Of a DNA stretch of 64,000 nt, positions 9,901 to 63,998 are shown piece by piece (position 1 is the stretch's first letter; each line of letters opens with the position of its first letter). Below the pieces are notes generated by a model, which saw only the letters and a list, made by a program, of their open reading frames with translations, did not search any database and was not told the origin of the DNA. This DNA is from Candidatus Saccharimonadales bacterium (GTDB taxonomy: Bacteria; Patescibacteriota; Saccharimonadia; Saccharimonadales; 2-12-FULL-41-12). A program made the translations under genes and the position numbers. The stretch spans positions 5,690-69,689 of the forward strand of contig JANWLD010000003.1 of assembly GCA_025451045.1 (NCBI GenBank), in the 5' to 3' direction.

Positions 9901-10877
9901 ATGATACCGGTGCAAGCATCACCACGTCCGATGCGCGCGATATTAGCATCACGTTGGCTAATACTGCCACTGATAGCAATTTCATAGTCAACACTGCCGC
10001 CAGCTCGACTTCTAAGTTTGCTATCCAAAGCGCTGGTACTGACGCGTTTTCCATCACCAACGTTGCCAGCGCAGAAGGTTCGGCCCTGTTCAAGAACAAA
10101 ACTGATAATACTACTGGTTTCCAAGTCCAAAATTCATCAGGCAATGCATTACTCACCGCTGATACTACTAACACACGCTTATATGTAGGCGTTGTAGCGG
10201 GCTCGACTACCGGCACGTCTCTAGTGCTAAGCAATGATACGAACGCGACCTACAGCGCAGGTACTGCCACGAACGCGCCAACCGAGGTAGACGGAGCGAT
10301 GTTCTATAGCTCTACGAACCATAGTTTCTTATGTGGTACGGCCGGATCGTGGCAGACCTGCACAGGACTGCTATATTCGAATACGTCTGCCCCGTCAGCG
10401 GTCAACACATGTACCACAGCCTGCGCAGCCTTCAACGTACCTGCTGCAATCCCGGCCAATTATTGCCAAGCAGGCCGGGTAATCCGTCTGACCGCTAGAG
10501 GCATATGGTCCAGTGCGAACGCTTCCATAGCATTTGGTATTTACTATGGAACCGATGGTACAACTAAAACGAATGATACTCTGCTGGGGGATGCGACCCA
10601 GGCGACCCTAGCCACGCTAGACGCGAACAACTGGGGCTGGTCGCTGGATACGACGATAATATGTTTTGACACGACCCATATGATGGCTGAAACGGTAGAA
10701 ACATCTCGAGTCAGCGCTACCGCCACCACTACCAACGCCACTTACACGACTAATACCTCCTCTAGTACCTCAGTTACTTCCAATTCCGCGAAGAATCTGT
10801 ATGTATTCCCGGCGTTCAGTACATCTGCAGCCGGTAATACAGCAACACTTCAGCAATTAGTGGTTACTGGCAACTAG
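3912..10877 (+). CDS. Giant single-pass membrane/surface protein (2,321 aa): N-terminal Cys4 zinc ribbon, disordered linker, TM helix, repetitive ectodomain with a glycine-rich domain
   Basis: Uninterrupted 6.97-kb ORF.
- Zinc ribbon: C9-x2-C12...C26-x3-C30 (nt 3936-4001).
- Linker: P/A/T/Q-rich.
- TM helix: WALGLVLPLFLIGIGGSIFFSL (nt 4722-4787).
- Repeats: six copies of a module containing ST(T/A)AFQ(V/I)QN...L(F/L)xxDTTN(T/S)(R/K)IGIG.
- Poly-Gly domain: nt ~7740-8530.
- C-terminus: Cys-containing Ser/Thr-rich domain. Confidence 0.85.
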   Translation: MAATKIKKCQMCLALFTATRKDAKTCSATCRKRLHRTLQANTVQEKVAKVERVVSEEFHRLAGSLLGNHVAFEPLLLSDETGSIPVVEAPPETTENNLASTDPVVAPPTWAEGEAHQLASVAAPVSVSPAAPAPAPAQPAPTQPLHQPGNVFTPDSAAPQASTTPVAAETTTNSTNSDSLESEQKTTSNQNLPTDITNQTIQPTATNPSNELNNQLGTAAAQQRVDLFSMASSSGPVAVTDKQADTYSPLNFIKGIFGLGNSEASRKRRNWALGLVLPLFLIGIGGSIFFSLQEKNHQLASNQQQAEPSGPAKPINFSDGYKLSTNVPLEANQSIIISPTAQPKDLQKGQIFFDQTANELFYYNGTEVIGLNPSTITINGQGGDVALGSGLGFSGGTLSNSGVTGINGTANQINVNHATGSVTLSLPQNIGTASTPTFAGLNLASALPVSEGGTGATSFAANTVLLGNGSGALQSTNVGSTGECLIIDSGGTPTFQNCASGGGVFAGGSQTPGTLTKFDTTTNQIVDSLVSESGSTVTVNGDLSITGTTSGNGSGLTDLNASQLTSGTIPSARVTGNYTGITGTGALTTGSIASGFGTISTGNNITTSATIQGGVVNATTTLQLGGTNINTGGTLSNVAYLDQDNTLTGHNLFQNFSNSTTAFQIQNSTGTSNLFVADTTNTRIGIGTAGPGYRLDVQGGDINTSGMYRANGSQISSANLSNDANLAKINGSNIFSAANTFSSTVAIQGANSLTLGTASNVGSVIFRDGASANTGTLQLEGTLGGNVTYNLPTSTGTQTVCTIETGNCAGSGSGVTGSGTINKLAKFTDGQEIGDSSITDDGSTVTVSASQVIQGAAGLTIGANAVNGQLVLKNSSNANTLTLQSGVTTSNLTLTLPTGDGSNGYCLKTNGSGILAFASCTGGPGGGVTSVNALSGTLNLEGTANQISVSSAGDTITLSLPQDINIGGNAAFRTITLTGADTADNLIVANALSGATGKLLDLKVNNVSKVTIDASGNINTVGQYQVNGLQISSANLSNDANLAKLDGTGPQTFTGNNLFKSDSTTAFQVQNSAGTSNLFVADTTNTRIGIGTPTPGYTLDANGDINTSGVYRIGGNTICSASGCTATSGSGSYVQNGTVMQTANFNIQSAAAGSVTAVIQGANSQSADLLQLKTSTPFTVMSVGATGAALFKNSADSTAAFQIQNAGGQSLFVANTTAQQIAIGPAAIPANGVLTIGTNTTATSGGIYFGTDTNLYRSAGATLTTDTALTVGGTLAVAGGVSGGGTGASGGTGGGASGDDGGAGGGAIGTVNGGSSTGIDTGITGAQSIDISGLFAVLTNVGGFPTTSPGAGSPTGSGVTANINHGGSATGFGCGGGGAGFYGGNGGNGLYGGGGGGAAGFSATNMTGGAGGQGVVVISPVGGTNVVKTSGSSYTVPAGITTIKVWAIGAGGGGGGATDIDPSSGGGGGAGGVAYRTFVVVPGNTISYSLGTGGAGGIDTNNGTDGGSTTFTVGATTITANGGAGGKYNNAATNNGGTFSSGNTGSVVVNGGLTVTGNTTLFQNYTNSTTAFQVQNTAGTNIFNVDTTNSKIGTANTTVASTDSAALTIKSGDASGSTSNSGAVTIDSGTATGTAGNISIGTGAYAHNVTIGNTTGSSAVTIQGGTGAINIGTQAVADTITIGNSTGASSVVINNGTGALNIGTNAIAHTITLGNSTGATSIVANCGTGACSFGTNAIAHTTTVGSLTGAATTTIQGGTGGVNLGTGGIANTIQIGNTTGGVAQTINIGNNGTGGSTNTVVIGSTIAGATTLQSAGGVSITTLGSADTATFLCRNSSNIIATCTSSGTSFNQSGNSFGATATLGTTDNNGLNIITNSATVASLSNSGAALFKNASNSTAGFQVQNSSGNELLTVDTTNSKIILGKANTVNGTIDFKSSSSAYTVTLQAGATGSTNPSFTLPTADGTTGQCLQTNGSGVLSFGACIGVGTTGTLQQSYDTGASITTSDARDISITLANTATDSNFIVNTAASSTSKFAIQSAGTDAFSITNVASAEGSALFKNKTDNTTGFQVQNSSGNALLTADTTNTRLYVGVVAGSTTGTSLVLSNDTNATYSAGTATNAPTEVDGAMFYSSTNHSFLCGTAGSWQTCTGLLYSNTSAPSAVNTCTTACAAFNVPAAIPANYCQAGRVIRLTARGIWSSANASIAFGIYYGTDGTTKTNDTLLGDATQATLATLDANNWGWSLDTTIICFDTTHMMAETVETSRVSATATTTNATYTTNTSSSTSVTSNSAKNLYVFPAFSTSAAGNTATLQQLVVTGN
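6050..6095 (+). repeat. Internal 46-nt direct repeat, copy 1 (encodes QISSANLSNDANLAK)
   Basis: 45/46 identical to nt 6998-7043. Flanking module sequence is ~80% identical by eye. Confidence 0.9.
6998..7043 (+). repeat. Internal 46-nt direct repeat, copy 2
   Basis: 45/46 identical to nt 6050-6095. Confidence 0.9.
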
Positions 10878-16372: not shown

Positions 16373-18163
16373 ATGGCAAATCCTAATCAAGGCCCCTGGA
16401 TGGGCGAAATGGGAGATGACGACGAAGACGACGACTTGCTGGGCGAGGGCGGGAAGGCTGAAGACGAATCCTGGTTCTTGCCACCGGCCGAAGAGGCACC
16501 GGACTTTTTCTCTTCTGAAGCCGCCGATGACTTATTCGGGAGCGAAGAAGATCCCGAGGATAAAGATAGTCCGGAAGGCGGTATTTTCAGTAACTTAGGT
16601 GAGACGGAAGATGATGAGGGCGAAGAAGGGGAAGACCAGCAAACCGAATCACCGGAAGAGACGCCCCAAGAAGAACCCTCAGCCCAGGAAGACGTCGTTG
16701 AAGAAGCTGACGATGAGACGCTGAACATTCCGCATGAGGAGGAGGACGAAGCGCCAGACACCGACGAGCCAGATTCGAGAGAATTAGCTCAGGCAGAGAG
16801 CGAAGAGCCAACTGAAGTGACCGAAACAGGAGAAAATTCCGAGGAGAGTGCCTCTGAAGAGCCATCTGTACAAAGTGAACAAGCTTCGCAGGACACACCG
16901 GAAGAGGAGCCGGCTATCATAGAAAATGAACCTGAACCCGAATCGGAGGTCGAGACTGAGCCTCAGGAGGCAGAAATTGCTGAAAGTACCGAAGAGAAAC
17001 CAGAAGAACCTGAATCCTCGGAGAATATTGAAACTGAACCTGAAGAGCCGGAATCTGAGGCCGAACAAAATGAGGATTTAACAGAGCAAAGTGAACAAAA
17101 CCCGGATGAGTCGGAACTCACAGAAACTGAGGAAGAAGTTCCTTTGGAAGACCAATTGCAGGAAATCGAGGAAATCGTCGAAGAAGCTCCCATCGAAGAA
17201 GAACCGTCCGAAATCGAGGAAATAGAGCAGGCAGAAGCAGAAGAAATGCCTGAAGAGGAAGAAGAGCCTGAAAACGCTCAGGAACAAGAAGATGATATAG
17301 ACGAGGACATGGAAAAAGAAAAAGCCGCCCGCGAAGAGGAACTTGAGCGAATCCGGCATAAACTCGACAGCGAATTCCAAAAGGACGAAACCCGCCGCAA
17401 TACTGCCGCGCAGCAGGCAGAACGGGGCAAGAGCATAGAAGACTATATGATTGATATTGATACCCTGAACATGGGGATGCTGGTGCATTATCTAAGTAAA
17501 CGCCGCGACAAGAAGCTGGGCAGAGAAATTGAAGATACCAAAAAATCATTGGAACAACTACGCGGTGAGGTTGAAGACGGAGAAACCCCGACTCAGCTGG
17601 CAGAACAGGGCCAGTCTGAGGATGAAGAAACTGACGTTGAAATGCAAGCCGAGGCTTTGAATGAAAACGAAACAACCGCTTCAGCGCTTGAAAAAGGCGT
17701 TGAAACAGAAGAAGAGACGGCTAATATTGAGGCAACGGCAATGGAGCAGTCTCGACAAAATCAAGAATTCAGCAATGCTGAGGCAGGAAACACTAATCCC
17801 CAGACAGAAGAAATCCATGTCGAAACTTTGACCCGCCAGAATGAAGTTGACCAGCATCTTTCGGAAGAAGAATCATTTGAACGGCGCCAGGAAACAACCA
17901 GCCAGCCGAAAGACCAAGCCCTTCAAGGGGTATCGCCAGAGCATGTTTCGGGTTCGGCCGTGCCTATATCCGATATAATCAATGTCAGAGAGCAGACGCC
18001 TAACAACGACAGCCAGGCTGGCGGTTTGTCCAATACGGCTGAAACGAAAGAAAATGCCAATCAGGAAATACCGGCGGAAAAATATAGAAAGTCTGTCCGC
18101 GTCGGTGTAGCGGCCGGCTTGACCATAACGGGAGCACTACTTTTATATCTGTTATTCTTCTAA
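16373..18163 (+). CDS. Polyacidic (Glu/Asp-rich) tail-anchored membrane protein, unknown function
   Basis: 596 aa, mostly E/D/P/S/T low complexity. Short helical core (KEKAAREEELERIRHKL...LVHYLSKRRDKKLGREIE). Single C-terminal TM VGVAAGLTITGALLLYLLFF at the very end. Confidence 0.7.
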   Translation: MANPNQGPWMGEMGDDDEDDDLLGEGGKAEDESWFLPPAEEAPDFFSSEAADDLFGSEEDPEDKDSPEGGIFSNLGETEDDEGEEGEDQQTESPEETPQEEPSAQEDVVEEADDETLNIPHEEEDEAPDTDEPDSRELAQAESEEPTEVTETGENSEESASEEPSVQSEQASQDTPEEEPAIIENEPEPESEVETEPQEAEIAESTEEKPEEPESSENIETEPEEPESEAEQNEDLTEQSEQNPDESELTETEEEVPLEDQLQEIEEIVEEAPIEEEPSEIEEIEQAEAEEMPEEEEEPENAQEQEDDIDEDMEKEKAAREEELERIRHKLDSEFQKDETRRNTAAQQAERGKSIEDYMIDIDTLNMGMLVHYLSKRRDKKLGREIEDTKKSLEQLRGEVEDGETPTQLAEQGQSEDEETDVEMQAEALNENETTASALEKGVETEEETANIEATAMEQSRQNQEFSNAEAGNTNPQTEEIHVETLTRQNEVDQHLSEEESFERRQETTSQPKDQALQGVSPEHVSGSAVPISDIINVREQTPNNDSQAGGLSNTAETKENANQEIPAEKYRKSVRVGVAAGLTITGALLLYLLFF

Positions 18164-27964: not shown

Positions 27965-30760
27965 ATGAAAACAACCAGCTTAAACGTGGGTAGGCTTTTT
28001 ACTAAACCCAAAACGAAGGCCTACGACCAGCTCAAATGGTCAAAAAAGGACTCTATTATCGTTAACCCGATGACGGACACTCCTGTATTTGAACAAAAGA
28101 ACGTCGAATTCCCGGACAATTGGTCGCTAAACGCGATTAATATCGTCGCGCAAAAATATTTTACCGGTACGCCCGGTACCAAAAGCCGCGAAAGTTCGAT
28201 GAAGCAACTGATTGACAGGGTCGTTGATACGATTACCCGGCATGGCATACAAGAAGATTACTTTGACAGCGAAGCCGAAGCCGAGGATTTTAAAGAGGAA
28301 CTGAAATATATTTTGGCCACCCAGCGGGCGGCATTCAACTCGCCGGTTTGGTTCAATATCGGCGCGCCGGAACGAGCCCAACAGGCCAGCGCCTGCTTTA
28401 TCCTGGGAGTTGAAGACACTATGCCGTCGATTCTTAACTGGTACCGTGAAGAAGGTATGATCTTTAAAGGCGGTTCCGGTTCGGGAATCAACCTGAGCGG
28501 TATCCGTTCTTCGGTTGAATCGCTGGGTAAAAGCGCCGGAACGGCTTCAGGGCCGCTGAGTTTCATGCGCGGCGCGGACTCATCAGCCGGCGCTATAAAA
28601 AGCGGTGGAAAGACCCGCAGGGCCGCCAAGATGGTGATTTTAAACGCGGACCACCCCGACGTTGAGGAATTCATCTGGTGCAAGGCTATCGAAGAACGCA
28701 AAGCCAGAGTTTTGGAACAGAATGGTTTTGATATGAGCCTGGACGGCAAGGACTCTTTCTCGGTCCAGTACCAAAATGCCAATAATTCGGTCCGGGTTAC
28801 CGACGAATTCATGCAAGCCGTAATCGAAGACAAGGAATGGGACTTAAAAGCGGTCACCACCGGAAAGAGAGTCAAGACGGTTAAAGCCAAGGAACTATTC
28901 AGGGAATTCGCCAAGGCGGCGTGGGAGTGCGCCGACCCGGGAATGCAGTACGACACCACTATCAACTATTGGCATACTACACCGGTTGCCGGCAGAATAA
29001 ACGGCTCCAACCCTTGTAGTGAATACATGCATCTGGATAATTCGGCCTGTAATCTGGCTTCAATCAACCTGCTCAAATACCTTAGGGAAAACGGTACATT
29101 CGATGTTAAGTCGTTCAAACATACCGTAGAGTTAGTATTCAGCGCGCAGGAAATCCTGGTCGGTTACTCATCCTACCCAACAGAGAGTATCACCAAGAAC
29201 GCCAAAGCTTACCGCGAACTAGGACTAGGCTATGCCAACCTTGGGGCACTTTTGATGGCTCAAGGTTTGCCTTATGATTCCGACGAAGGACGAGCACAAG
29301 CCGCTGCTATAACCGCGTTGATGACAGGGCACGCTTATGCCACTAGTGCCAAACTGGCTCGCAAAGTCGGTCCGTTCACCGGTTTTCACAAGGATCAAAA
29401 AGGTATGCTCAAAGTGTTAAATCAGCACAAAGATGCCGTAAAGGATATAGATGCCAGCCTGGTCTCAGAAGAACTTTTAAGCGCGGCCACCAACTCTTGG
29501 GATGAAGCTGTAGAGCTGGCAGAACTATACGGAGTACGCAATTCCCAGGCTAGCGTACTGGCGCCTACCGGGACTATCGGCCTGATGATGGACTGTGATA
29601 CTACCGGAATCGAACCGGATTTGGGCTTGGTTAAGCTCAAGAAATTGGTCGGCGGCGGGACCATGAGTATCGTAAACAGAACGGTTCCCCGAGCACTAAA
29701 AGTACTCGGATATTCTGCAACCGAAGTCGATGATGTAATTGAGTATATTGATGTAGAAAAGACTATAACAGGCGCTCCTCACCTCAAGAAAGAACATCAA
29801 GCCGTCTTTTCCTGCTCCATGGGAGACAATGCCATACATTACTCAGGCCATGTAAAAATGATGTCGGCGGTACAACCATTTATTTCCGGCGCGATAAGCA
29901 AAACCGTAAATATGCCGGAAGATGTGAGTATTGAAGATGTCGAACAGCTTCATATTGACGCCTGGAAACTGGGGCTCAAAGCCGTGGCGATTTACCGGGA
30001 TAACTGTAAAGTAGCCCAACCGCTGGCCATGGCAAAGAAAGAGGGACAGGAAGAAAAAACCGGACAACCGGTAGTTTCAATAGCATCTGATCAGCAGTTA
30101 GTGGTTAAAGGTCCTATCCGAAGAGAAATGCCAAAGACTCGGACAGCTACGACTTTTGAGTTCAACGTTGCCGGCAGCAAGGGCTTTATCACCGTAGGAG
30201 AATTTGAAGACGGTACTCCAGGTGAAATCTTTGTAAAAATAGCCAAGCAAGGTTCTACTTTGTCCGGAGTGATGGAATCACTGGCTATATCCGTAAGTTA
30301 CGGCCTACAATACGGCGTGCCTCTGAAGAGCTATGTCCATGCGTTAACCAATATGACTTTCGCGCCGGCCGGACTTACCGACGATTCTGAAATCAAGACC
30401 GCGACTTCGCTCGTAGATTACATCTTTAAACGGTTGGCCCATACTTACTTGTCGTTTGATGACAAGCTTGAACTGGGACTGGCATCAATAGATGACATGC
30501 CTGAAACGCAAACCAGCTTGCTTGAAGAAAGTAAATCTAGCGTACCGGAAGTCAAAGGACCTGTGTTGCTGAAGGAAGACCCGGTAATTAAAGAACAAAT
30601 TAAGCCTGCTGAAACTCCAGCGCAAGAGGACAACACGCCTAAAAAATCCGTCAAGAAAGATGACACCGCCCCTATGTGCTATAACTGCGGTAATCAGACG
30701 CAGCGTTCGGGTTCGTGCTATGTCTGTACATCCTGCGGCTCCACAACTGGCTGCTCCTAG
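27965..30760 (+). CDS. nrdJ: Ribonucleotide reductase, class II (adenosylcobalamin-dependent)
   Basis: 931 aa. Active-site loop GSNPCSEY...SACNLASINL. C-terminal Cys tail CYNCG...CYVCTSCGSTTGC. Confidence 0.9.
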   Translation: MKTTSLNVGRLFTKPKTKAYDQLKWSKKDSIIVNPMTDTPVFEQKNVEFPDNWSLNAINIVAQKYFTGTPGTKSRESSMKQLIDRVVDTITRHGIQEDYFDSEAEAEDFKEELKYILATQRAAFNSPVWFNIGAPERAQQASACFILGVEDTMPSILNWYREEGMIFKGGSGSGINLSGIRSSVESLGKSAGTASGPLSFMRGADSSAGAIKSGGKTRRAAKMVILNADHPDVEEFIWCKAIEERKARVLEQNGFDMSLDGKDSFSVQYQNANNSVRVTDEFMQAVIEDKEWDLKAVTTGKRVKTVKAKELFREFAKAAWECADPGMQYDTTINYWHTTPVAGRINGSNPCSEYMHLDNSACNLASINLLKYLRENGTFDVKSFKHTVELVFSAQEILVGYSSYPTESITKNAKAYRELGLGYANLGALLMAQGLPYDSDEGRAQAAAITALMTGHAYATSAKLARKVGPFTGFHKDQKGMLKVLNQHKDAVKDIDASLVSEELLSAATNSWDEAVELAELYGVRNSQASVLAPTGTIGLMMDCDTTGIEPDLGLVKLKKLVGGGTMSIVNRTVPRALKVLGYSATEVDDVIEYIDVEKTITGAPHLKKEHQAVFSCSMGDNAIHYSGHVKMMSAVQPFISGAISKTVNMPEDVSIEDVEQLHIDAWKLGLKAVAIYRDNCKVAQPLAMAKKEGQEEKTGQPVVSIASDQQLVVKGPIRREMPKTRTATTFEFNVAGSKGFITVGEFEDGTPGEIFVKIAKQGSTLSGVMESLAISVSYGLQYGVPLKSYVHALTNMTFAPAGLTDDSEIKTATSLVDYIFKRLAHTYLSFDDKLELGLASIDDMPETQTSLLEESKSSVPEVKGPVLLKEDPVIKEQIKPAETPAQEDNTPKKSVKKDDTAPMCYNCGNQTQRSGSCYVCTSCGSTTGCS

Positions 30761-31368: not shown

Positions 31369-34290
31369 GTGAAATACAGGTCCGGCACCAGACGAAAAGC
31401 CATAGACTACGAAAGATCTTGGGTCAAAAAATGGAAAAAAGCCAAAGTCTTTGAGCAGTCGGTTTCAATGCGCCCAAAGGAAAATTCCTTTGTTTTTTAT
31501 GACGGCCCGCCGTTTATAACGGGGGTACCGCACCATGGTACGCTGCTGACTAGTATAGTCAAAGACGCCGTGCCTAGATATCAAACCATGAAAGGCAAGC
31601 GGGTAGAACGTGTCTGGGGCTGGGATTGCCACGGCCTGCCAGCCGAGGTTTTCACCGAAGAAAAACTTGGTATCAAAGACAAACGTGATATCGGCACCAA
31701 AGTCAGCTTGGAAGAATATATAACCACTTGCAGGGCCAACATGGTCCAGACCGGCAGTCTATGGGAAGATACTATCGACCGCGTTGGCCGCTGGGTGGAT
31801 TTTGAGGGTGCCTATAAAACCATGGACAAAGATTACATGGAATCGGTGTGGTGGGCTTTTAAACAGCTGTATGAAAAGGGCAAAATTTACGAAGGCGAAA
31901 AAGTTCTGCTGTATTGTACCCGTGATGCCACGCCCATCAGCAAGGCCGAAGTCGCCATGGATAACTCTTATCAGGATGTTACCGATCCGAGCGTTTACGC
32001 CAAATTCAAACTGAAAGATTCCGATTCATATCTTTTAGCCTGGACGACAACTCCTTGGACCCTGCCTAGTAACAGCGCCATCGCCATCAACAAAGATATA
32101 ACTTACGCTGAGGTCGAATTGGACGGCCAAAGATACATCTTAGCTGAAAAACTGCTGGACAAGGCCCTGACTGATGAAAAACACCAGAAACTTGACTATG
32201 AGGTTATCAAGACTTTCAAAGGCAAAGAACTCGTCGGCAAAGCCTATGAGCCGTTATTTGATACTTACACAGATATCGGCAAGGATGCCTTCAAAGTTTG
32301 GCATGCCGACTTCGTCCACGCCGAAGAAGGTACTGGTATTGCCCACGAGTCACCAGCTTACGGAGAGGAAGACTATCAGCTTAGTAAAGAAAACAATTTT
32401 CCATGGGTGATAAGTACCGATGAAAACGGTTTTTATACAGGCGGACTATATAAAGGCAAGAATATCTGGGAAGTCAACAAAGAGATAGCCAAAACGCTTT
32501 TGAGCGAAGGCAAGGCGCTTAAAATCGATTACATAACCCATAGTTATCCGCATTGCCACCGTTGTGGCACGAGGCTGATGTATAGGGCCCATCCAAGCTG
32601 GTTCATGGATATTGATGGCCAACGCAGTGAAATGTTAGAAAAAAATGGTGGGATAAACTGGTTTCCAAAGCACATTAAGCACGGCCGGTTTGCCAAGACC
32701 GTCGAGACAGCACCGGATTGGAACCTCAGCCGCGACCGTTTCTGGGCGACAGCCATGCCGGTTTGGAAAGGCAAAGACAGTGCCGGCAAGGAACATATCA
32801 AAGTAATCGGCAGCTATGAGGAGCTACAGCAGTTATCAGGCAAGACGCTGGAAGATTACCACCGGCCTTGGGTAGATGATATAACCTTTGAAATCGACGG
32901 CGTAAAATACCGGCGGATTGAAAAAGTATTAGACTGCTGGTTTGAGTCCGGCTCGATGCCGTTCGCCCAATACCATTACCCCTTTGAGAACGTTAAGAAA
33001 TTCGAAGAGAATTTTCCCTGTGATTTCATCGTCGAGTATGTTCCGCAGGTACGGGCTTGGTTTTATTACATGCACGCCGTATCAGTCGGACTGTTTGGCG
33101 ACGAAGCGTTTAAAAATGTTATAGTCCATGGCACCATCGCTGGCAATGATGGCCGCAAGATGAGTAAAAGTTATGGCAATTACACCGATCCATCGGAGCT
33201 GATGGATAAGTATTCGGCCGACGCCCTACGGTTTTTATTCCTGAGCTCGCCGCTTTTAAACGGCGAGGATTTCTCACTGTTGGACAAAGATGTCGCTGAT
33301 GTGGCGCGCAAACTGGGCATGATATGGAATATGTACGACTTCTTTACTTTGTACGCGGAGGTTGACAAGTGGGAATGGAATCCGCCGGTAAGCGGCCCAG
33401 CCCAGCTAGCCGACCCTACGCCGGAGCTATCCAACCTGCTCGATATTTGGATTATTTCCCGGCTTCATCAGCTTACCCGCCAGATTGACGAACATATGGG
33501 CAAATACGACATCCCAAATGCTTTAAAACCGGTTCTGGGCTTTATCGATGACGCGTCAAATTGGTATGTACGGCGGTCGCGCAAGCGCTTTTGGAAAAGC
33601 GAGGATGATGACGACAAAGCTGATGCTTACCAGACGCTACATTACATCCTGACCCAGCTAAGCATTATATTGGCGCCGTTCACGCCGTTTTTGGCCGAGG
33701 AGCTATATACCAAGCTGACGGGCGGGGAATCGGTCCATCTGCTGGACTGGCCAAAGGTCGGGCATGTCAACGAGCTGGTAATCGAAGCCATGGATTTCAC
33801 CAAACAGGTGGTCAATGAAGGGCTGTCTCTCAGGGCGCAAGCCGGAATAAAGGTTCGCCAACCGTTGGCCAAGGTGAGCATCAGTGGAGCGAAAGACATC
33901 TTTGTAAAGAGTGAAAACGAGCTTTACCGCATGATTATCTGCGAGGAATTGAACATTAAAGACATAGACTGGTCAACTAAAGGCGAATGGTCGGTTAGCT
34001 TGGATACCAAGATAACTCCGGCATTAAAGAAAGAAGGCGTTGCCAGGGAGATAATCAGGTATGTTCAAAATGCCCGCAAAGAAGCTGGCCTGAACGTTGA
34101 TGACCGGATAATCTTATCGCTTGCCACCGGTGACTCAGGCATTGAAAAAGCCATAAAAGACCACGAAAAGACCATCATGCATGAAACTTTGGCCGTTAAG
34201 CTTATTGCTAAGGAACAAAAACTCTTTTCCAAAGAAGTTGAGATAGAAGGCAGTAAACTGAACGTATCCTTGGATAGATACAAAGCTTAA
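31369..34290 (+). CDS. ileS: Isoleucyl-tRNA synthetase (type 2-like)
   Basis: YDGPPFITGVPHHGTLL (HIGH region), KMSKS, 973 aa. The GTG start is needed to retain the conserved N-terminal helix (ERSWVKKWKKAKVFEQS). Confidence 0.9.
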   Translation: MKYRSGTRRKAIDYERSWVKKWKKAKVFEQSVSMRPKENSFVFYDGPPFITGVPHHGTLLTSIVKDAVPRYQTMKGKRVERVWGWDCHGLPAEVFTEEKLGIKDKRDIGTKVSLEEYITTCRANMVQTGSLWEDTIDRVGRWVDFEGAYKTMDKDYMESVWWAFKQLYEKGKIYEGEKVLLYCTRDATPISKAEVAMDNSYQDVTDPSVYAKFKLKDSDSYLLAWTTTPWTLPSNSAIAINKDITYAEVELDGQRYILAEKLLDKALTDEKHQKLDYEVIKTFKGKELVGKAYEPLFDTYTDIGKDAFKVWHADFVHAEEGTGIAHESPAYGEEDYQLSKENNFPWVISTDENGFYTGGLYKGKNIWEVNKEIAKTLLSEGKALKIDYITHSYPHCHRCGTRLMYRAHPSWFMDIDGQRSEMLEKNGGINWFPKHIKHGRFAKTVETAPDWNLSRDRFWATAMPVWKGKDSAGKEHIKVIGSYEELQQLSGKTLEDYHRPWVDDITFEIDGVKYRRIEKVLDCWFESGSMPFAQYHYPFENVKKFEENFPCDFIVEYVPQVRAWFYYMHAVSVGLFGDEAFKNVIVHGTIAGNDGRKMSKSYGNYTDPSELMDKYSADALRFLFLSSPLLNGEDFSLLDKDVADVARKLGMIWNMYDFFTLYAEVDKWEWNPPVSGPAQLADPTPELSNLLDIWIISRLHQLTRQIDEHMGKYDIPNALKPVLGFIDDASNWYVRRSRKRFWKSEDDDDKADAYQTLHYILTQLSIILAPFTPFLAEELYTKLTGGESVHLLDWPKVGHVNELVIEAMDFTKQVVNEGLSLRAQAGIKVRQPLAKVSISGAKDIFVKSENELYRMIICEELNIKDIDWSTKGEWSVSLDTKITPALKKEGVAREIIRYVQNARKEAGLNVDDRIILSLATGDSGIEKAIKDHEKTIMHETLAVKLIAKEQKLFSKEVEIEGSKLNVSLDRYKA

Positions 34291-39042: not shown

Positions 39043-39795
39043 ATGGTAAAATTTCTGGTTGATAAAATCCGGCCGGGCAGGGGCTTTGCCCATACTTTTC
39101 ATCTGAGCTTCATTGCTCTTCTGCCGCCGCTGGTTTGGGGTTTGGTGAGGCTTGATTTGACGGGCTTGGCTGTCGCATTGCTACTGCTAAGCAAATGGCG
39201 GATGTTCTCCGTACACCCCCGGCATTGGATAAATCATATCCGCACCAACGCCGTCGACATCATCGTTGGACTGAGCATTTTAGAATTTATAATCCAAAGC
39301 GACAGCGGCCTTTTGCAGGGGCTGTGGGTGTTGGTTTTCGAGGCTTGGCTGCTGTTTATAAAACCCGGCTCGAGCAACCTTTTAGTGACTATTCAGGCTT
39401 TAGCATCCCAAACAATGGGGCTGACTGCTCTTTTTCTGGCCTTTGAAAGGGGCAGTATGGCGTTTTATATCTTGGCAGTCTGGATAATATGCTACTTTTC
39501 CGCTCGGCACTTCCTTGGAATCTTTGAAGAACGGCATGGCAGTCTGATATCTTCCATCTGGGCATTTTTAGCCGCCTGTCTGATGTGGGTACTTAGCCAT
39601 TGGTTGTTATTTTTTGGTCCGATAGCCCAACCGGCGATACTTTTGAGCATAATTGGCACAGGGTTGGCCGGGCTTTACTATCTAGACCAAAGCGATCGGT
39701 TGGCTAGCGGCGTCAAAAAACAGATACTTTTGGCAATGTTTGCGCTTATCTTCATCATCATAATCTTTTCTGACTGGGGCGACAAAGCCGTCTGA
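39043..39795 (+). CDS. Polytopic membrane protein, unknown function
   Basis: 250 aa with about 7 hydrophobic segments. No motif recognised. Confidence 0.6.
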   Translation: MVKFLVDKIRPGRGFAHTFHLSFIALLPPLVWGLVRLDLTGLAVALLLLSKWRMFSVHPRHWINHIRTNAVDIIVGLSILEFIIQSDSGLLQGLWVLVFEAWLLFIKPGSSNLLVTIQALASQTMGLTALFLAFERGSMAFYILAVWIICYFSARHFLGIFEERHGSLISSIWAFLAACLMWVLSHWLLFFGPIAQPAILLSIIGTGLAGLYYLDQSDRLASGVKKQILLAMFALIFIIIIFSDWGDKAV

Positions 39796-49343: not shown

Positions 49344-50870
49344 ATGCAGTGGTTGGATAAAATTGTTAATGAGTTGATTACCCGTTATCCAGAGGGTGAA
49401 ATTTTAATTGAGTCCGGCGGTTCGCCTTCTGGCGAATATCACCTTGGGCATATGCGCGAACTGGTTATCTGTGATGCGATTCTTTTAGAGTTAAGAAACC
49501 GTGGGCGCAAAGCCAAACACATATATTTTGTAGATGATCTGGACGCGCTTAGAAAAATTCCGGTAAATATTCCAGCCGAATATGAAAAATACCTAGGCCA
49601 GCCGCTCTCAGATATACCGTCGCCGGAAGGAGACAAATCTTACGCTGATTATTTTATTGAAGGCCTTAAAGCCGGCTGTGTGTCTCTGGGCGTGGAAGTT
49701 GACTTTGTCTACGCGCACGAGAAATACAGGTCTGGTTTTTTCACAGAAGCGATTGAAAAGAGCCTAGAGAATATAGAACAAATAAAAAATATTCTGGAGA
49801 GCGTATCAAACAGGAAGCTAGGAAATGAGTGGTCGCCGATTCAGGTTAACGAAGGCGGTTATCTGAAGAAACGGCGATATTTAAGCATTGATGAGTCTGC
49901 GAAGATTTTGAAATACGAAGATAAAGAGGCCAAAGAGCAATCAATCCCTTACGACTCAGGCGATATAAAGCTGGATTGGCGGATTGATTGGCCTGCCCGA
50001 TGGTGGTTGCTTGGTGTTGCGGTCGAACCATTCGGCCGCGACCATGCTTCCTCAGGAGGCTCTTATGACACCGGCGAACAAATTATTAAGGAAATCTTTG
50101 GGGCTAAAGCGCCATTGGCTGTTAAATATGACTTTATCAACCTGTTTGGCGATACTAAAAAAATGAGCGCCAGCAAAGGTACCGGACTTTCGGCAAGCGA
50201 AGCAGCCGGGATTATTCCGTCGGAAGCCATGCGCTATTTTATTTTGAACGCTCCGCCGAATAAACTACTTCATTTTGACCCGATAGGCGGACTGACACGC
50301 TTAATCGATGAATTTGCTGAACTTTTGGCCAAACCCAACAAAGACGAAAGGGAAGAAAGGCTTCTAGAGCTTTGCACGAATGGCGTGGAGTCGGTTGTCA
50401 GCAATGTTCCGTTTTCTCATCTGGTAGACAGTTACCAGTCAGCTTTAAAAGATCCTGAAAAAACACTTCAAACCATTGCTAGGACCGAGCACGCCGTCAA
50501 CGTAAAAGCTCAACGGGAAACTATCTTAAAAGAACTGAAATTTATTGATAAATGGCTAAGCAGCTGGGCGCCGGAAGAAGTTAAATTTAATATTTTGGAT
50601 GAGGTTGATGGGTCAAAATTCAGCCCGGCTGAAAAAAACTACCTTAAATTACTGGCGGAAAAGATAGAATCCGGCCCGGCTGAGCCGGACGCCGAGTGGT
50701 TTCATAAAACCATATATGAATTCAAGGATAAGACTGAGCTTGAACCCAAAAAGCTTTTTCAGACCTTATACAAAGTTCTTATTGGCAAAGATTCCGGTCC
50801 GCGCGCCGGTTGGTTTCTCTCTACGCTGCCGCGGGATTGGCTGATTAAACGTTTGAAATTAGAATCCTAA
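49344..50870 (+). CDS. lysK: Lysyl-tRNA synthetase, class I
   Basis: SGEYHLGHMRE (HIGH-type) and KMSASKG (KMSKS-type) in a ~500-aa protein. Confidence 0.85.
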   Translation: MQWLDKIVNELITRYPEGEILIESGGSPSGEYHLGHMRELVICDAILLELRNRGRKAKHIYFVDDLDALRKIPVNIPAEYEKYLGQPLSDIPSPEGDKSYADYFIEGLKAGCVSLGVEVDFVYAHEKYRSGFFTEAIEKSLENIEQIKNILESVSNRKLGNEWSPIQVNEGGYLKKRRYLSIDESAKILKYEDKEAKEQSIPYDSGDIKLDWRIDWPARWWLLGVAVEPFGRDHASSGGSYDTGEQIIKEIFGAKAPLAVKYDFINLFGDTKKMSASKGTGLSASEAAGIIPSEAMRYFILNAPPNKLLHFDPIGGLTRLIDEFAELLAKPNKDEREERLLELCTNGVESVVSNVPFSHLVDSYQSALKDPEKTLQTIARTEHAVNVKAQRETILKELKFIDKWLSSWAPEEVKFNILDEVDGSKFSPAEKNYLKLLAEKIESGPAEPDAEWFHKTIYEFKDKTELEPKKLFQTLYKVLIGKDSGPRAGWFLSTLPRDWLIKRLKLES

Positions 50871-51397
50871 GATAAAAGCGATTCGAATTTCTTGCGGAAT
50901 TTCTCAAGTTTTGGATTGATGATGACTTGGCAATAGCCTACATTTGGATTGTTTTTATAAAAGTCCTGATGAAAATCCTCGGCCGGCCAAAATTTTTGAA
51001 GTTTGCTGATTTTTGTAACAATCGGATCTTTCCAAAGGGTTGGCGCAAAATTTTTGGTGATGTCTTCGGCAACCTTTCTTTGCTCTTTATCGTGGTAAAA
51101 GATTTCCGAGCGGTATTCGGTTCCAACGTCGTAACCTTGACGGTTCAAAGTTGTCGGGTCGTGGACATAGTAAAAGACTTCAAGCAACTGACGATAGGAA
51201 ATTATTTCAGAATCAAAAGTTATCTGAATCGCTTCAACGTGGCCGTTGTCACTATATGCAACTTTGTCGTACGTGGGATTGTCCACAGTACCGCCGGTGT
51301 AGCCGGAAACGACTTTTTTGACGCCTTTTATTTCCTGGTAAATAGCTTCGGTGCACCAGAAACAGCCTCCCGCCAATGTAGCTTGCGACTCATGCAC
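50867..51397 (-). CDS. msrA: Peptide-methionine (S)-S-oxide reductase MsrA
   Basis: Active-site GGCFWC. Confidence 0.9.
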   Translation of the reverse strand: MHESQATLAGGCFWCTEAIYQEIKGVKKVVSGYTGGTVDNPTYDKVAYSDNGHVEAIQITFDSEIISYRQLLEVFYYVHDPTTLNRQGYDVGTEYRSEIFYHDKEQRKVAEDITKNFAPTLWKDPIVTKISKLQKFWPAEDFHQDFYKNNPNVGYCQVIINPKLEKFRKKFESLLS

Positions 51398-51502
51398 CGC
51401 ACCAATCTCCCGCCAAAATAGCTTTTTGCATATAAACAGTTTATCACCGCTGAATTGTGATATAGTATTTTTAAGAAGTTATAAAAAGGGGAGAAATCAA
51501 AT

Positions 51503-52363
51503 ATGGCAAAAACTGCCAGAAAACCATCAACTAAAAAAACAAAAGCAAAAAGCGCTGCAAAGCAACCGGCTGTCGCCGCCGCGGCCGCTAAACCCAAGGC
51601 AAACAAGGCGCTGACGCTTGAAAAACTTTATAAATTTAATCTGTTCGCTGCTGCCTCTAACCTGATTTTCGCGGTCGTCAGTGTGATATTTGTTTCCAGC
51701 CAAACAGTTGATTTTACTTGGGCTTATGCGACACAAGACACGCTGGCCGGCTCGACGCTTGGTCCGGCTTACCGGACATTTATGACAGTCGAAATACGTT
51801 ACTTGTTGGCAGCGGTATTTATCCTGTCTGCAATATTTTCATTGTTACTGGCTACGAAATTGCGCAAAAACTATGAGGCCAGCGTAAAGAACGCTGCGTC
51901 TGGCTGGCGCTGGCTGTTTTCGGGGATAACACTTGCCCTGACCTTAGAAATAGCAACCTTGCTGGCCGGTATTGGAGATATGATGACCCTAAAGCTGGTC
52001 GCTGGCCTTATATTGACAACTTCGCTTTTGGCTTTCATGAGCGAGCTGGCCAACAAAGGTACAAAAAAACAATACAGAGCCTTTGCCATCAGTGTTTTTA
52101 CCGGTGTAATCGCCTGGTTCCCGTTAGCTGGAAGCCTGCTGGGAACAACATTATATGGCATCAGCAATTTTGAGTGGTATGTTTATACCTTCGCAGTTGC
52201 CGTATTAGCCGGCTTTATCGGTATTGGCTGGAGCCAATATAAACACGCTCGTGACGGTGTTTCGGCCAAAGGCTATCTGCAACTGGAAGGCAGATACGTA
52301 TCAATCGATTTTCTTATCAAGCTCGCTGCTTTCTTAATCATTATCTCAGCCCTGCATAAATAA
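51503..52363 (+). CDS. Heliorhodopsin-family 7-TM protein (divergent)
   Basis: Seven hydrophobic helices. By-eye alignment to remembered heliorhodopsin 48C12 across TM1, TM3-TM4 and TM7 (YLQLEGRYVSIDFLIKLAAFL vs YLRGERAYIVLSLVAKSALAW). Lys273 falls at the Schiff-base position. Confidence 0.6.
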   Translation: MAKTARKPSTKKTKAKSAAKQPAVAAAAAKPKANKALTLEKLYKFNLFAAASNLIFAVVSVIFVSSQTVDFTWAYATQDTLAGSTLGPAYRTFMTVEIRYLLAAVFILSAIFSLLLATKLRKNYEASVKNAASGWRWLFSGITLALTLEIATLLAGIGDMMTLKLVAGLILTTSLLAFMSELANKGTKKQYRAFAISVFTGVIAWFPLAGSLLGTTLYGISNFEWYVYTFAVAVLAGFIGIGWSQYKHARDGVSAKGYLQLEGRYVSIDFLIKLAAFLIIISALHK

Positions 52364-52369
52364 AGTCCG

Positions 52370-53056
52370 ATGCGTTTGCACAGGTTTTACGTTGTACCTG
52401 ATACTAAGCTTGAAAAAGATTTTTGGCTTCATGACCAGCAGTTGCTCTGGCAGTGGAACAAAGTATTGCGGTTTCGCCCGGGACAAGAGGTTATATTGTT
52501 TGCCGGCCAGAAAACGGAAAGATTGTACAAGCTGGCGGAAATATCCAAAACCGAAGCCCGCTTGGCGCTAGTGACCGAAATAAAGCTCAAATTACCACAA
52601 CGCCACGTGTATTTATTTTGGAGCCTGCTAAAGCGCGAGAACAATGAATACATAATTCAAAAATGCACTGAGCTGGGCGTATCAAATTTCGTACCGATAC
52701 TTAGCGAACGGACAATTAAAAAAGATTTTAACCCGGAGCGCGCTAAAAGAATTGCAATTGAGGCCAGCGAGCAATGCGGTCGGGGCAGTGTGCCTGTTGT
52801 CAGGGAACCTCTGCATCTGGAAAAAGCTTTAGAACAATATAAGGAAAAACTTGAACTCTATGTTTGCCAGCAGGGCGGTAACCCGATTCCATCGATTGAG
52901 GGCAAAAGTGCCGGGCTTTTAATCGGTCCGGAAGGCGGCTGGAGCGAGTCCGAGCAAAAAATGTTTTCATCATCCGGTTTGACCAGTTTGGGTTTGGGTG
53001 ATTTTACGCTTCGTGCCGAAACCGCCGCGATTGTTGCTAGTTCAAAACTCTTGTAA
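52370..53056 (+). CDS. rsmE: 16S rRNA (uracil1498-N3)-methyltransferase RsmE
   Basis: MRLHRFYV N-terminus. C-terminal SPOUT motif LLIGPEGGWSESE. Confidence 0.85.
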   Translation: MRLHRFYVVPDTKLEKDFWLHDQQLLWQWNKVLRFRPGQEVILFAGQKTERLYKLAEISKTEARLALVTEIKLKLPQRHVYLFWSLLKRENNEYIIQKCTELGVSNFVPILSERTIKKDFNPERAKRIAIEASEQCGRGSVPVVREPLHLEKALEQYKEKLELYVCQQGGNPIPSIEGKSAGLLIGPEGGWSESEQKMFSSSGLTSLGLGDFTLRAETAAIVASSKLL

Positions 53057-62654: not shown

Positions 62655-63998
62655 TTAGGAAGTACTAAGGAAGAGACTATTTTCCAATTCGCCGTTTTCT
62701 ACCCTTTCCATTAGAGGGCCGGCAGTGATTTTGTATAGACTAGCATTTTGATTTTTTTGTTTAAAAAGCCCATATTGTCTGACAAGTTTCCGAGCCCGAT
62801 CGTATTTACGAAATTCTTTGGAGAATCCGAAAAGGTACGCTTGTTTGTTATAAGCAGACATCTGTCTTAAGGACATAATAAAATCAACAGCTTTTAGTTG
62901 ATGTTCATCATCTAACTCAGTAGCAATCGGGGCGTTTATCAGGGCAAGTCCAGCCCACGCGGATTTTTCCATAAGAGTGGACATAAGATGCATAAAATTA
63001 ACTTTTACAAATTCGTCTTTGGTATCAAAGAACATGTGTGTGATTTTATGGACGGTATCAATGAAGACCTTTGGATCTGTTTCGGCCAATTTTTTGAAGG
63101 AGGCATAGATAATATGTACACCTAATGAATGGGCTCGATTATCCGGGCTAGCGGGCTTTTCCTCAATTAATAGTTCAGGCTCTTTAGACGGGTCATCATA
63201 CCCAAACTTTGCCTTGTATTCTTCAGATAGAGAAGTAAATATTGGCAACCAGTCAAGCACGCCTTTTTCAAGTTCATCGGCATCTGCATAAGCTAGCTCC
63301 ATATACTCTCTGGCAAAGATACGATTAAATTCCACATAAAGGCCGTCTAGAAGCTTCAAATCACTATTTTTCAGATAATCAGAAACTTTTGCTTCCTCAT
63401 TAACTTCTTTAACTAATAGCTCAGGATCATAAATCAGCGTTGAAAGATATTCTTTTAGTATAGGTCCGAGTTCCTTTTTCTCACGCGACATGATTTTTCC
63501 GCCAGGAGTAACGATGGTTTCAATTAGTTCATTGTGTTCAAAAAATCTTTGTGTAATCTCAGGCGGTTCTTCACCGCACCACAGGGCTAATTCCTCAATC
63601 TCTGATTGTCTCTTGGCCTGATGATTTTTTTGTGCTTCCAATTTTTCCTGTTTAATTTCTTCTCGCTTCTTTTCGGTCTGATTATTCTTTGAACGGGGCG
63701 GGATAGATACTTCTGCCTGGGGCAGAGAATCGACTGGCTCCGATTCGGGCTCGGGCCTGACATGTTTTAGGGCTTTTAAGGTAGACATGTGTATGTCTTC
63801 ATCATCAACATGCTTCCTAATCCATTTTAACCCTTTGATAACAAGTCCGTGGTCAAGCACGATAAAGTCAATTCCGTCTACCGGTTCGCGCTCTTCCAGA
63901 ACACGCATATATCTTAGAGCATGAACGATTCCGTCCTGGCGGCCATTGGCATTTTTACTGCTCGCATCTGCAACTACTGAAAATTCTATAGTGTCCAA
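62655..63998 (-). CDS. Hypothetical protein (447 aa or more; reading frame is open to the window edge)
   Basis: Long AT-rich ORF. N-terminal globular part, a K/E-rich linker and a helical C-terminal domain. No motif recognised. The first tracked codon is TTG and the frame reaches the edge, so the 5' end may be missing. Confidence 0.55.
   Translation of the reverse strand: MDTIEFSVVADASSKNANGRQDGIVHALRYMRVLEEREPVDGIDFIVLDHGLVIKGLKWIRKHVDDEDIHMSTLKALKHVRPEPESEPVDSLPQAEVSIPPRSKNNQTEKKREEIKQEKLEAQKNHQAKRQSEIEELALWCGEEPPEITQRFFEHNELIETIVTPGGKIMSREKKELGPILKEYLSTLIYDPELLVKEVNEEAKVSDYLKNSDLKLLDGLYVEFNRIFAREYMELAYADADELEKGVLDWLPIFTSLSEEYKAKFGYDDPSKEPELLIEEKPASPDNRAHSLGVHIIYASFKKLAETDPKVFIDTVHKITHMFFDTKDEFVKVNFMHLMSTLMEKSAWAGLALINAPIATELDDEHQLKAVDFIMSLRQMSAYNKQAYLFGFSKEFRKYDRARKLVRQYGLFKQKNQNASLYKITAGPLMERVENGELENSLFLSTS

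Follow-up and report, generated by a model that had tools for sequence, protein, structure and literature searches.

Can a heliorhodopsin (HeR) lose the helix-3 glutamate that serves as counterion of its retinal Schiff base, and what would then balance the charge of the helix-7 lysine? This question is raised by the open reading frame (ORF) 51503-52363, encoded within a 64,000-nucleotide stretch of DNA (hereafter the window) of a soil Candidatus Saccharimonadales bacterium (GenBank assembly GCA_025451045.1, contig JANWLD010000003.1, positions 5,690-69,689 of the forward strand). Its product keeps the helix-7 lysine (Lys273), carries Phe139 at the counterion site of helix 3 and has an aspartate (Asp269) four residues before the lysine. 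We found that acids at these two sites are nearly mutually exclusive among its relatives, that the arrangement characterizes a large clade of HeRs of the Candidate Phyla Radiation (CPR), and that the gene is stably paired with msrA, encoding peptide methionine sulfoxide reductase A.

Family Membership, Fold and Predicted Topology

The product of ORF 51503-52363 is a genuine heliorhodopsin-fold membrane protein of the HeR family, as had been proposed in its initial annotation with the help of segments of HeR 48C12, which agree with the PDB sequence. The protein matched Pfam family PF18761 with 64.4 bits (gathering score 26.7; E-value 1.3e-17) over residues 42-268, corresponding to profile positions 1-225 of 242. 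The NCBIfam HeR equivalog NF038020 gave 69.7 bits, under its cut-off of 100, which is consistent with the name "hypothetical protein" carried by NCBI-sourced relatives. Searches of the PDB sequences with phmmer returned heliorhodopsins only (TaHeR, E-value 6.5e-11; 48C12, 5e-4), and with a profile built from its 40 nearest homologues the E-values reached 2.3e-27 for TaHeR and 3.8e-21 for 48C12.

The AlphaFold2 (AF2) model, computed on the alignment of these 40 homologues (mean predicted local distance difference test (pLDDT) 86.3, predicted template modelling (TM) score 0.80), shows seven helices, in line with the seven hydrophobic segments counted originally, and a beta hairpin. When it was compared with the PDB by Foldseek, the top ten matches were heliorhodopsin chains. 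The best of them was TaHeR (6IS6), on which the model superposes with a target-normalised TM score of 0.90 (E-value 4e-12, root-mean-square deviation 2.2 A, 249 columns), while the pairwise identity to the solved HeRs is 17-21%. The features shared with TaHeR and 48C12 (6SU3) are the PF18761 domain, the fold (TM score 0.84-0.90), the cytoplasmic N-terminus, the hairpin in the AB loop and the helix-7 lysine. Type-1 rhodopsins reach TM scores of 0.5-0.7 only. The protein has no match to PF01036 (Bac_rhodopsin), even at E-values up to 10.

The inverted HeR topology, with the N-terminus in the cytoplasm, is predicted because of the HeR fold and the charge distribution: within the AF2 helix limits, about 21-26 Lys/Arg residues fall into the N-terminal tail and the BC, DE and FG loops, and 2-4 into the AB, CD and EF loops and the C-terminus. 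This agrees with the N-in orientation suggested at first, as does the composition of the basic tail (38 residues, of which residues 1-34 have pLDDT <50), which distinguishes the protein from the solved HeRs. It is worth mentioning that most CPR HeRs have such an acid-free, disordered, Lys/Ala/Thr/Ser-rich tail of 30-50 residues (MAxTAKK...), which 48C12 and TaHeR lack.

Apparent Displacement of the Acid near the Schiff-Base Lysine

The residues surrounding the Schiff base were placed with three alignments, i.e., pairwise phmmer alignments with PDB sequences, the 40-sequence clade profile aligned with PDB sequences, and a MAFFT alignment of 188 relatives together with TaHeR (numbering of 48C12 residues follows PMC7049168). 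All three gave an identical register, anchored by the invariant Arg-Trp pair two residues ahead of the counterion site (within every group of relatives the Trp is present in 100% and the Arg in 78-97% of the sequences); in the phmmer alignment with TaHeR, for instance, RWLFSG faces RWFEYS, and DFLIK faces SLVAK. Relative to 48C12, the counterion Glu107 is replaced by Phe139, a site at which none of the alignments places Glu or Asp, and Ser237 by Asp269; Lys273 coincides with the Schiff-base lysine in all three alignments. The corresponding assignments of the initial annotation are therefore retained.

The 48C12 structure, solved at 1.5 A, shows direct hydrogen bonds from the Schiff base to Glu107 as well as to Ser237 (PMC7049168), so an acid at the Ser237 site would lie within its reach. 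Glu107 and Ser237 have been described as highly conserved across heliorhodopsins (PMC7049168), and Kovalev et al. listed them, together with Ser111 and Ser76, as the conserved HeR Schiff-base pattern, describing no subfamily devoid of Glu107.

It is highly improbable that the alignments have misplaced an existing canonical counterion, or that the gene is a decaying relic. The low identity to the solved HeRs invites such a suspicion, but three alignment methods agree around the Arg-Trp anchor, the only acid of helix 3 (Glu149) is found ten residues past the counterion site, and the clade sharing the arrangement comprises about 75 intact clusters, in which the length, the promoter and the ribosome-binding site are conserved. 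Glu149 was also considered as a substitute helix-3 counterion and rejected, as it stands ten residues off the site and is equally frequent in relatives with a helix-3 acid.

Beyond the counterion, both cavity histidines are gone, as had been noticed earlier: His23 and His80 of 48C12 correspond to Asn53 and Ser113 in the phmmer and clade-profile alignments. This loss, like the glutamate in the outer part of helix 3, is typical of the whole CPR HeR radiation, the histidine pair being missing also from most CPR relatives with a helix-3 acid. Further replacements concern Asn101 (Ser133), Tyr108 (Ser140) and the pocket residues Phe72, Ser112, Met115, Asn138, Met141 and Ile142, whereas Asn16, Ser76, Tyr92, Arg104, Trp105, Glu149, Trp173, Phe206, Gln213, Tyr226, Glu230 and Tyr233 of 48C12 have equivalents in the protein. 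The proline of helix E behind the HeR-specific pi-bulge (Pro172 of 48C12) is displaced by one turn, with Ala204 at its site and proline at Pro207 (positions 52112-52123).

The D-x-x-x-K spacing was originally compared with that of bacteriorhodopsin (D212/K216). Its placement at Asp269/Lys273 stands and the aspartate four residues before the Schiff-base lysine is indeed common to both; type-1 pigments, however, normally retain the helix-3 aspartate (D85) as well. Judging from the residue pattern, we regard the F70/D184/K188 triad of schizorhodopsin (SzR), not bacteriorhodopsin, as the closest mechanistic analogue of F139/D269/K273. In SzR4, F70 occupies the site of bacteriorhodopsin D85 and D184 is the single counterion, with R67 and K188 beside them, and the D184N substitution bleaches the pigment (PMC8040798). 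In both proteins the arginine (R67 and R136, respectively) stands three residues before the phenylalanine, and the aspartate four before the lysine. This resemblance is best read as convergence within the HeR lineage. Neither Pfam nor phmmer searches against the PDB detected a sequence relationship with schizorhodopsins, and no SzR was present among the top 50 structural matches. Unlike SzR4 and AntR, the protein has the opposite predicted topology, a HeR-type AB hairpin and no exact equivalent of the cytoplasmic Glu81, from whose position Glu149 is one residue off.

The same likeness could also be taken as a sign of a light-driven or light-gated proton transporter, in which the SzR-like Phe/Asp/Lys triad and Glu149 in the outer half would form a proton path, comparable to those of the viral HeR V2HeR3 or of the inward-pumping SzRs. 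The R-x-x-F ... D-x-x-x-K pattern does match that of SzR4, conserved charges (Glu149 and Lys164, extra in comparison with the solved HeRs) occupy a half that is fully hydrophobic in 48C12, and proton-transporting HeRs exist (PMC9448325). However, Glu149 follows Phe139 by 10 residues, and E81 of SzR follows F70 by 11, i.e., at a non-homologous position. Moreover, Glu149 and Lys164 are just as common in helix-3-acid relatives and so are unlinked to the swap, SzR or type-1 rhodopsin sequences give no match, and ion transport is absent in most characterised HeRs. We thus consider a transporter unlikely.

As for these two charges themselves, they are conserved through the whole CPR heliorhodopsin radiation, the corresponding half of 48C12 being entirely hydrophobic. 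Glu occupies the first site in 51-60% of the sequences of both counterion types and in 23% of those that have lost the Schiff-base lysine; Lys occupies the second in 82-100% of lysine-retaining relatives and in 55% of the others. A buried Glu149-Lys164 salt bridge is plausible.

Either/Or Distribution of the Two Acids among Relatives

A word-indexed search found 40 clusters of relatives (34-67% identity), every one with PF18761, while an exhaustive search of 50%-identity representatives brought 467 relatives and a second profile search 25 more. Among the lysine-retaining members of the aligned set of 188, 65 sequences carry the helix-3 acid alone and 60 (27 among the 50%-identity representatives) the acid four residues before the lysine alone, whereas acids at both sites occur in 2 sequences and at neither in 9. 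The mutual exclusion gives a Fisher p of 4e-26 overall and of 2e-15 on the representatives, both uncorrected for phylogeny. Where both sites are free of acid, the Schiff-base lysine is also gone in 21 of 31 sequences.

In all six Lys-to-Arg variants of the swapped lineage (P0030, P0032, P0077, P0190, P0197 and P0205) the aspartate is kept, and in all five of its other losses of the lysine it is absent as well (residues at the sites of Asp269/Lys273: P0026, Q/M; P0193, H/G; P0196, N/S; P0206, S/N; P0207, A/H), which ties Asp269 to a positive charge at position 273. It should be added that Arg replaces the Schiff-base lysine in 17 of the 188 CPR HeR relatives, many of which retain the neighbouring acid. 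This suggests that the Arg-bearing relatives may have become independent of retinal, with Arg standing in for the protonated Schiff base.

After removal of the three focal columns from the alignment, a neighbour-joining tree, which carries no support values, grouped about 59 sequences into a large clade with a non-acidic residue at position 139 and Asp or Glu at 269. With later matches, it amounts to about 76 clusters (90% identity) from CPR bacteria, mostly Saccharimonadales. Across this clade the Phe139 site accommodates F, L, Y, A, V or S, but never an acid, and the Asp269 site has D in 93% and E in 7% of representatives. Source names of the relatives are sparse: most are Candidatus Saccharimonadales, one is labelled "Parcubacteria" and one mis-annotated as "MFS permease". 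The three GTDB representatives among them belong to Saccharimonadales and come from the SMAG soil catalogue. A scan of genome collections with 18 closer sequences yielded three Saccharimonadales soil metagenome-assembled genomes (MAGs) only, and the taxonomic range is accordingly based on a small number of names. As far as these names show, the swapped lineage is limited to Saccharimonadales and other CPR bacteria.

The main clade shows linked changes, i.e., Ser133 and the shift of the helix-E proline from 204 to 207, the latter being tightly linked to the relocated acid in the alignment of relatives (Pro207 in 69 of 77 swapped-type sequences, Pro204 in 57 of 91 helix-3-acid sequences). Since four swapped sequences (P0120, P0051, P0071 and P0077) have the Pro204 that is otherwise typical of helix-3-acid sequences, the swap does not appear to have been a single event, although the number of its origins is tentative. 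The two sequences with both acids, P0099 and P0100, are placed next to swapped ones on the tree and look like intermediates. We also considered the clade as an ancestral intermediate between schizorhodopsins and HeRs; this was rejected in view of its nesting among CPR HeRs, its derived linked changes and the double-acid intermediates nearby.

Earlier, Chiriac et al. (2022) surveyed CPR genomes and reported 98 rhodopsins of inverted topology, Saccharimonadia accounting for 80, with SLVAK, SLIAK and SFVAK as common helix-7 motifs (PMC9166423). D-x-x-x-K motifs were not found in its available supplementary text, and the survey mentions neither helix-3 acid loss nor an msrA pairing.

Conserved Pairing with msrA

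The divergent orientation of the HeR gene and msrA across 105 bp, noted at first as a hint of a light/oxidative-stress link, is confirmed by the ORF coordinates, and the hint has become considerably stronger. The contig index held no exact match to the protein itself, and synteny was read from loci of homologues. A gene with PF01625 (MsrA) immediately adjoins the HeR gene in nine of nine cases (the window and eight further loci). The further msrA-HeR loci carry P0012 (twice), P0037, P0027, P0040, P0038, P0209, P0058 and P0189, reaching down to 34% identity. In the more distant loci, msrA has the same direction as the HeR gene and lies 16-134 nt upstream of it; in the subclade of the window it is inverted, but still adjacent. 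Genes inserted on either side of the pair vary, i.e., flavin mononucleotide (FMN) reductase with NTP_transf_9, DNA glycosylase or unknown ORFs between lysS and msrA, and a tRNA U5 methyltransferase between the HeR gene and rsmE, and none separates the two. As the helix-3-acid relatives P0040 and P0209 share the pairing, it predates the counterion swap.

In the searchable literature, which left subscription journals (where a prior description is possible) outside its scope, neither the relocation of the counterion nor the msrA pairing was found described. Within this scope, the accessible HeR papers of 2024-2026 do not mention a helix-7 counterion, and no paper contains both "heliorhodopsin" and "methionine sulfoxide reductase".

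Retinal Pigment or Retinal-Free Protein

The initial annotation left two options: either the chromophore pocket has been rewired, or the protein is a relative that works without retinal. The comparative data favour the rewired pocket, because the two acids are nearly exclusive, about 67 of the 76 clade clusters retain the lysine (~88%, against ~62% in neighbouring CPR HeR clades) and Asp and Lys are lost together. We therefore lean, with only a little more than even confidence, towards a retinal pigment on the HeR scaffold whose sole counterion has moved to helix 7. The lone carboxylate balancing the helix-7 lysine would have shifted from helix 3 (Phe139 site) to one turn before the lysine. 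All-trans retinal would be bound as a protonated Schiff base at Lys273, and Asp269 would act as its direct and sole counterion and as the probable proton acceptor, in the arrangement solved for SzR4. The remaining cytoplasmic cavity (Asn46, Tyr124, Arg136, Trp137, Glu181, Tyr258, Glu262 and Tyr265) is retained. Like other heliorhodopsins, the protein would be expected to sense light with a slow photocycle and to act on a partner in the cytoplasm, and not to work as a pump.

The retinal itself might be scavenged from other organisms, as with the type-1 rhodopsins of Saccharibacteria. No retinal or carotenoid gene (blh, crt) and no other rhodopsin was found when the 20 largest ORFs of the window lacking another identification were examined, in a scan that skipped ORFs 27965-30760 and 31369-34290 and all those below 200 aa, the 64 kb being a fraction of the genome. 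This agrees with the earlier remark that no such gene is visible there, and it is uninformative, because Saccharibacteria with proven type-1 pumps lack retinal genes too, their opsins binding added retinal within 30 s (PMC9296517).

Several points weigh against the preferred reading as a whole. A buried free lysine also needs exactly one countercharge, so the either/or pattern alone cannot separate a Schiff base from an ion pair of the apo-protein. The Schiff-base lysine is missing in 48 of the 188 relatives (Lys-to-Arg and other losses), which implies retinal-independent roles among them. The named relatives come from a soil MAG catalogue, where light is limited, and about half of the 48C12 pocket differs (Tyr108 besides the six residues listed above). 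The claim of independent origins of the swap leans on the neighbour-joining tree without support values. Finally, the region proS-greA-lysS ... serS-hpf-secA is broadly colinear among these Saccharimonadia genomes, and the adjacency to msrA may in part be due to the conserved order of genes and not to function; the msrA-HeR pair is nevertheless the most stable element of the region.

Several of these observations would suit a retinal-free protein of the HeR fold. Lys273 and Asp269 would then be paired as buried ions with a structural purpose, and the membrane role would be independent of light, e.g., that of a scaffold or regulator of a partner such as MsrA. Such a protein would also fit the Lys-to-Arg variants, which cannot bind retinal, keep the aspartate and otherwise look intact, as well as the missing histidine pair, the lack of retinal genes among the scanned ORFs and the position of the HeR gene at the head of a housekeeping row (rsmE, tyrA, pheA and an ilvE-like gene), 6 nt ahead of rsmE. 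It is harder to reconcile with the retention of the lysine above the level of neighbouring clades, with the preserved pocket-wall residues Trp137, Trp205, Phe238 and Gln245, and with the conservation of Gln245, Ser109, Lys164 and Glu149, which drops once the lysine is lost. Furthermore, canonical relatives that share the cavity residues are proven retinal pigments, and scavenged retinal is known to serve rhodopsins of Saccharibacteria. The retinal-free alternative therefore keeps a real, though clearly minor, share of our confidence, and the retinal-pigment reading appears slightly better than an even prospect.

If the protein is a photosensor, gene order points to MsrA as its most likely partner, and light might be coupled to the repair of photo-oxidised methionine. 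The most specific version of this idea is a light-switched two-gene module, in which a lineage-specific HeR with SzR-like helix-7 counterion and host-scavenged retinal would directly activate MsrA or recruit it to the membrane in response to light, the source of photo-oxidative damage; this version is rather unlikely.

Expression Signals and Other Features of the Window

The features of the locus are collected in Table 1. The expression signals were recognized in an alignment of five intergenic regions between msrA and the HeR gene, from loci reaching down to 45% protein identity. A generic two-hexamer sigma-70 scan of the intergenic region found nothing above the shuffled expectation and did not report the extended -10 element. 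The HeR gene and the rsmE-like gene are probably co-transcribed.

Table 1. Features of the msrA-HeR locus (window coordinates).
Feature	Position	Strand	Basis
msrA, peptide methionine sulfoxide reductase A, GCFWC active-site motif	50867..51397	-	ORF and translation; PF01625 in other loci
Extended -10 promoter-like element TGATATAGT (TGnTATAGT)	51458..51466	+	Invariant columns in five-spacer alignment
Ribosome-binding site GGGGAG, 9 nt before ATG	51488..51493	+	GGAG invariant in five-spacer alignment
Heliorhodopsin-family ORF, 286 aa, 7 transmembrane helices, predicted N-in/C-out	51503..52363	+	ATG start, Pfam, AF2 model
Disordered Lys/Ala/Thr-rich cytoplasmic N-terminal tail, aa 1-38	51503..51616	+	11 Lys/Arg, no Asp/Glu; sequence reading
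AB-loop beta hairpin, aa 68-97, extracellular, HeR hallmark	51704..51793	+	DSSP strands 68-78 and 86-97, AF2 model
Arg136-Trp137 (Arg104-Trp105 of 48C12), helix 3 anchor	51908..51913	+	Invariant in homologue alignment A1
Phe139 (TTT), counterion site Glu107 (48C12)/Glu108 (TaHeR)	51917..51919	+	Three alignments; codon read from sequence
Glu149, conserved acid, extracellular half of helix 3 (Val117 in 48C12)	51947..51949	+	Invariant in alignment A2
Lys164, helix 4 (Leu132 in 48C12), possible partner of Glu149	51992..51994	+	Conservation among relatives; pairing inferred
Glu262 (Glu230 of 48C12; Schiff-base cavity, Arg104 partner)	52286..52288	+	Invariant in alignment A1; clade-profile alignment
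Asp269 (GAT), four residues before Lys273 (Ser237 of 48C12); proposed relocated counterion	52307..52309	+	Three alignments; codon read from sequence
Lys273 (AAG), Schiff-base Lys position, Lys241 (48C12)/Lys238 (TaHeR)	52319..52321	+	Three alignments; codon read from sequence
rsmE-like 16S rRNA methyltransferase	52370..53056	+	Starts 6 nt after HeR stop; PF04452 in syntenic loci

Upstream of msrA, as in most relatives, the window encodes a class I lysyl-tRNA synthetase (PF01921; 49344-50870, + strand). At the same syntenic position, the P0189 locus has a class II-type synthetase (PF00152 with an OB fold, 506 aa), which may represent a replacement of the synthetase class. Elsewhere in the window, a 2321-aa ORF (3912-10877, + strand) has no Pfam match at E-values up to 0.001, and Pfam matches are also lacking for ORFs of 596 aa (16373-18163, +), 250 aa (39043-39795, +) and 447 aa (62655-63998, -).

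Implications for Heliorhodopsins of CPR Bacteria

In models of HeR photochemistry, the proton-accepting group consists of Glu107 and a water cavity lined by histidines. A diversified natural clade lacking the helix-3 acid and both histidines, and possessing the lysine together with an aspartate at the Ser237 site, offers a ready test of which elements are essential. It would be the HeR counterpart of the counterion displacement known in animal opsins, with a convergent link to the schizorhodopsin arrangement. It is also worth mentioning that surveys using NF038020 or the S-x-x-x-K motif would probably overlook such proteins.

The strict pairing with msrA points to a concrete and testable partner for a family of mostly unknown function. 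The pairing fits the association of HeRs with protection from oxidative stress, advanced as a proposal by Chiriac et al. (2022; PMC9166423), in which the stress would be light-induced. Should the light-switched MsrA module prove true, it would provide heliorhodopsins with a defined physiological role in CPR bacteria and constitute a natural case of counterion displacement within the HeR family.

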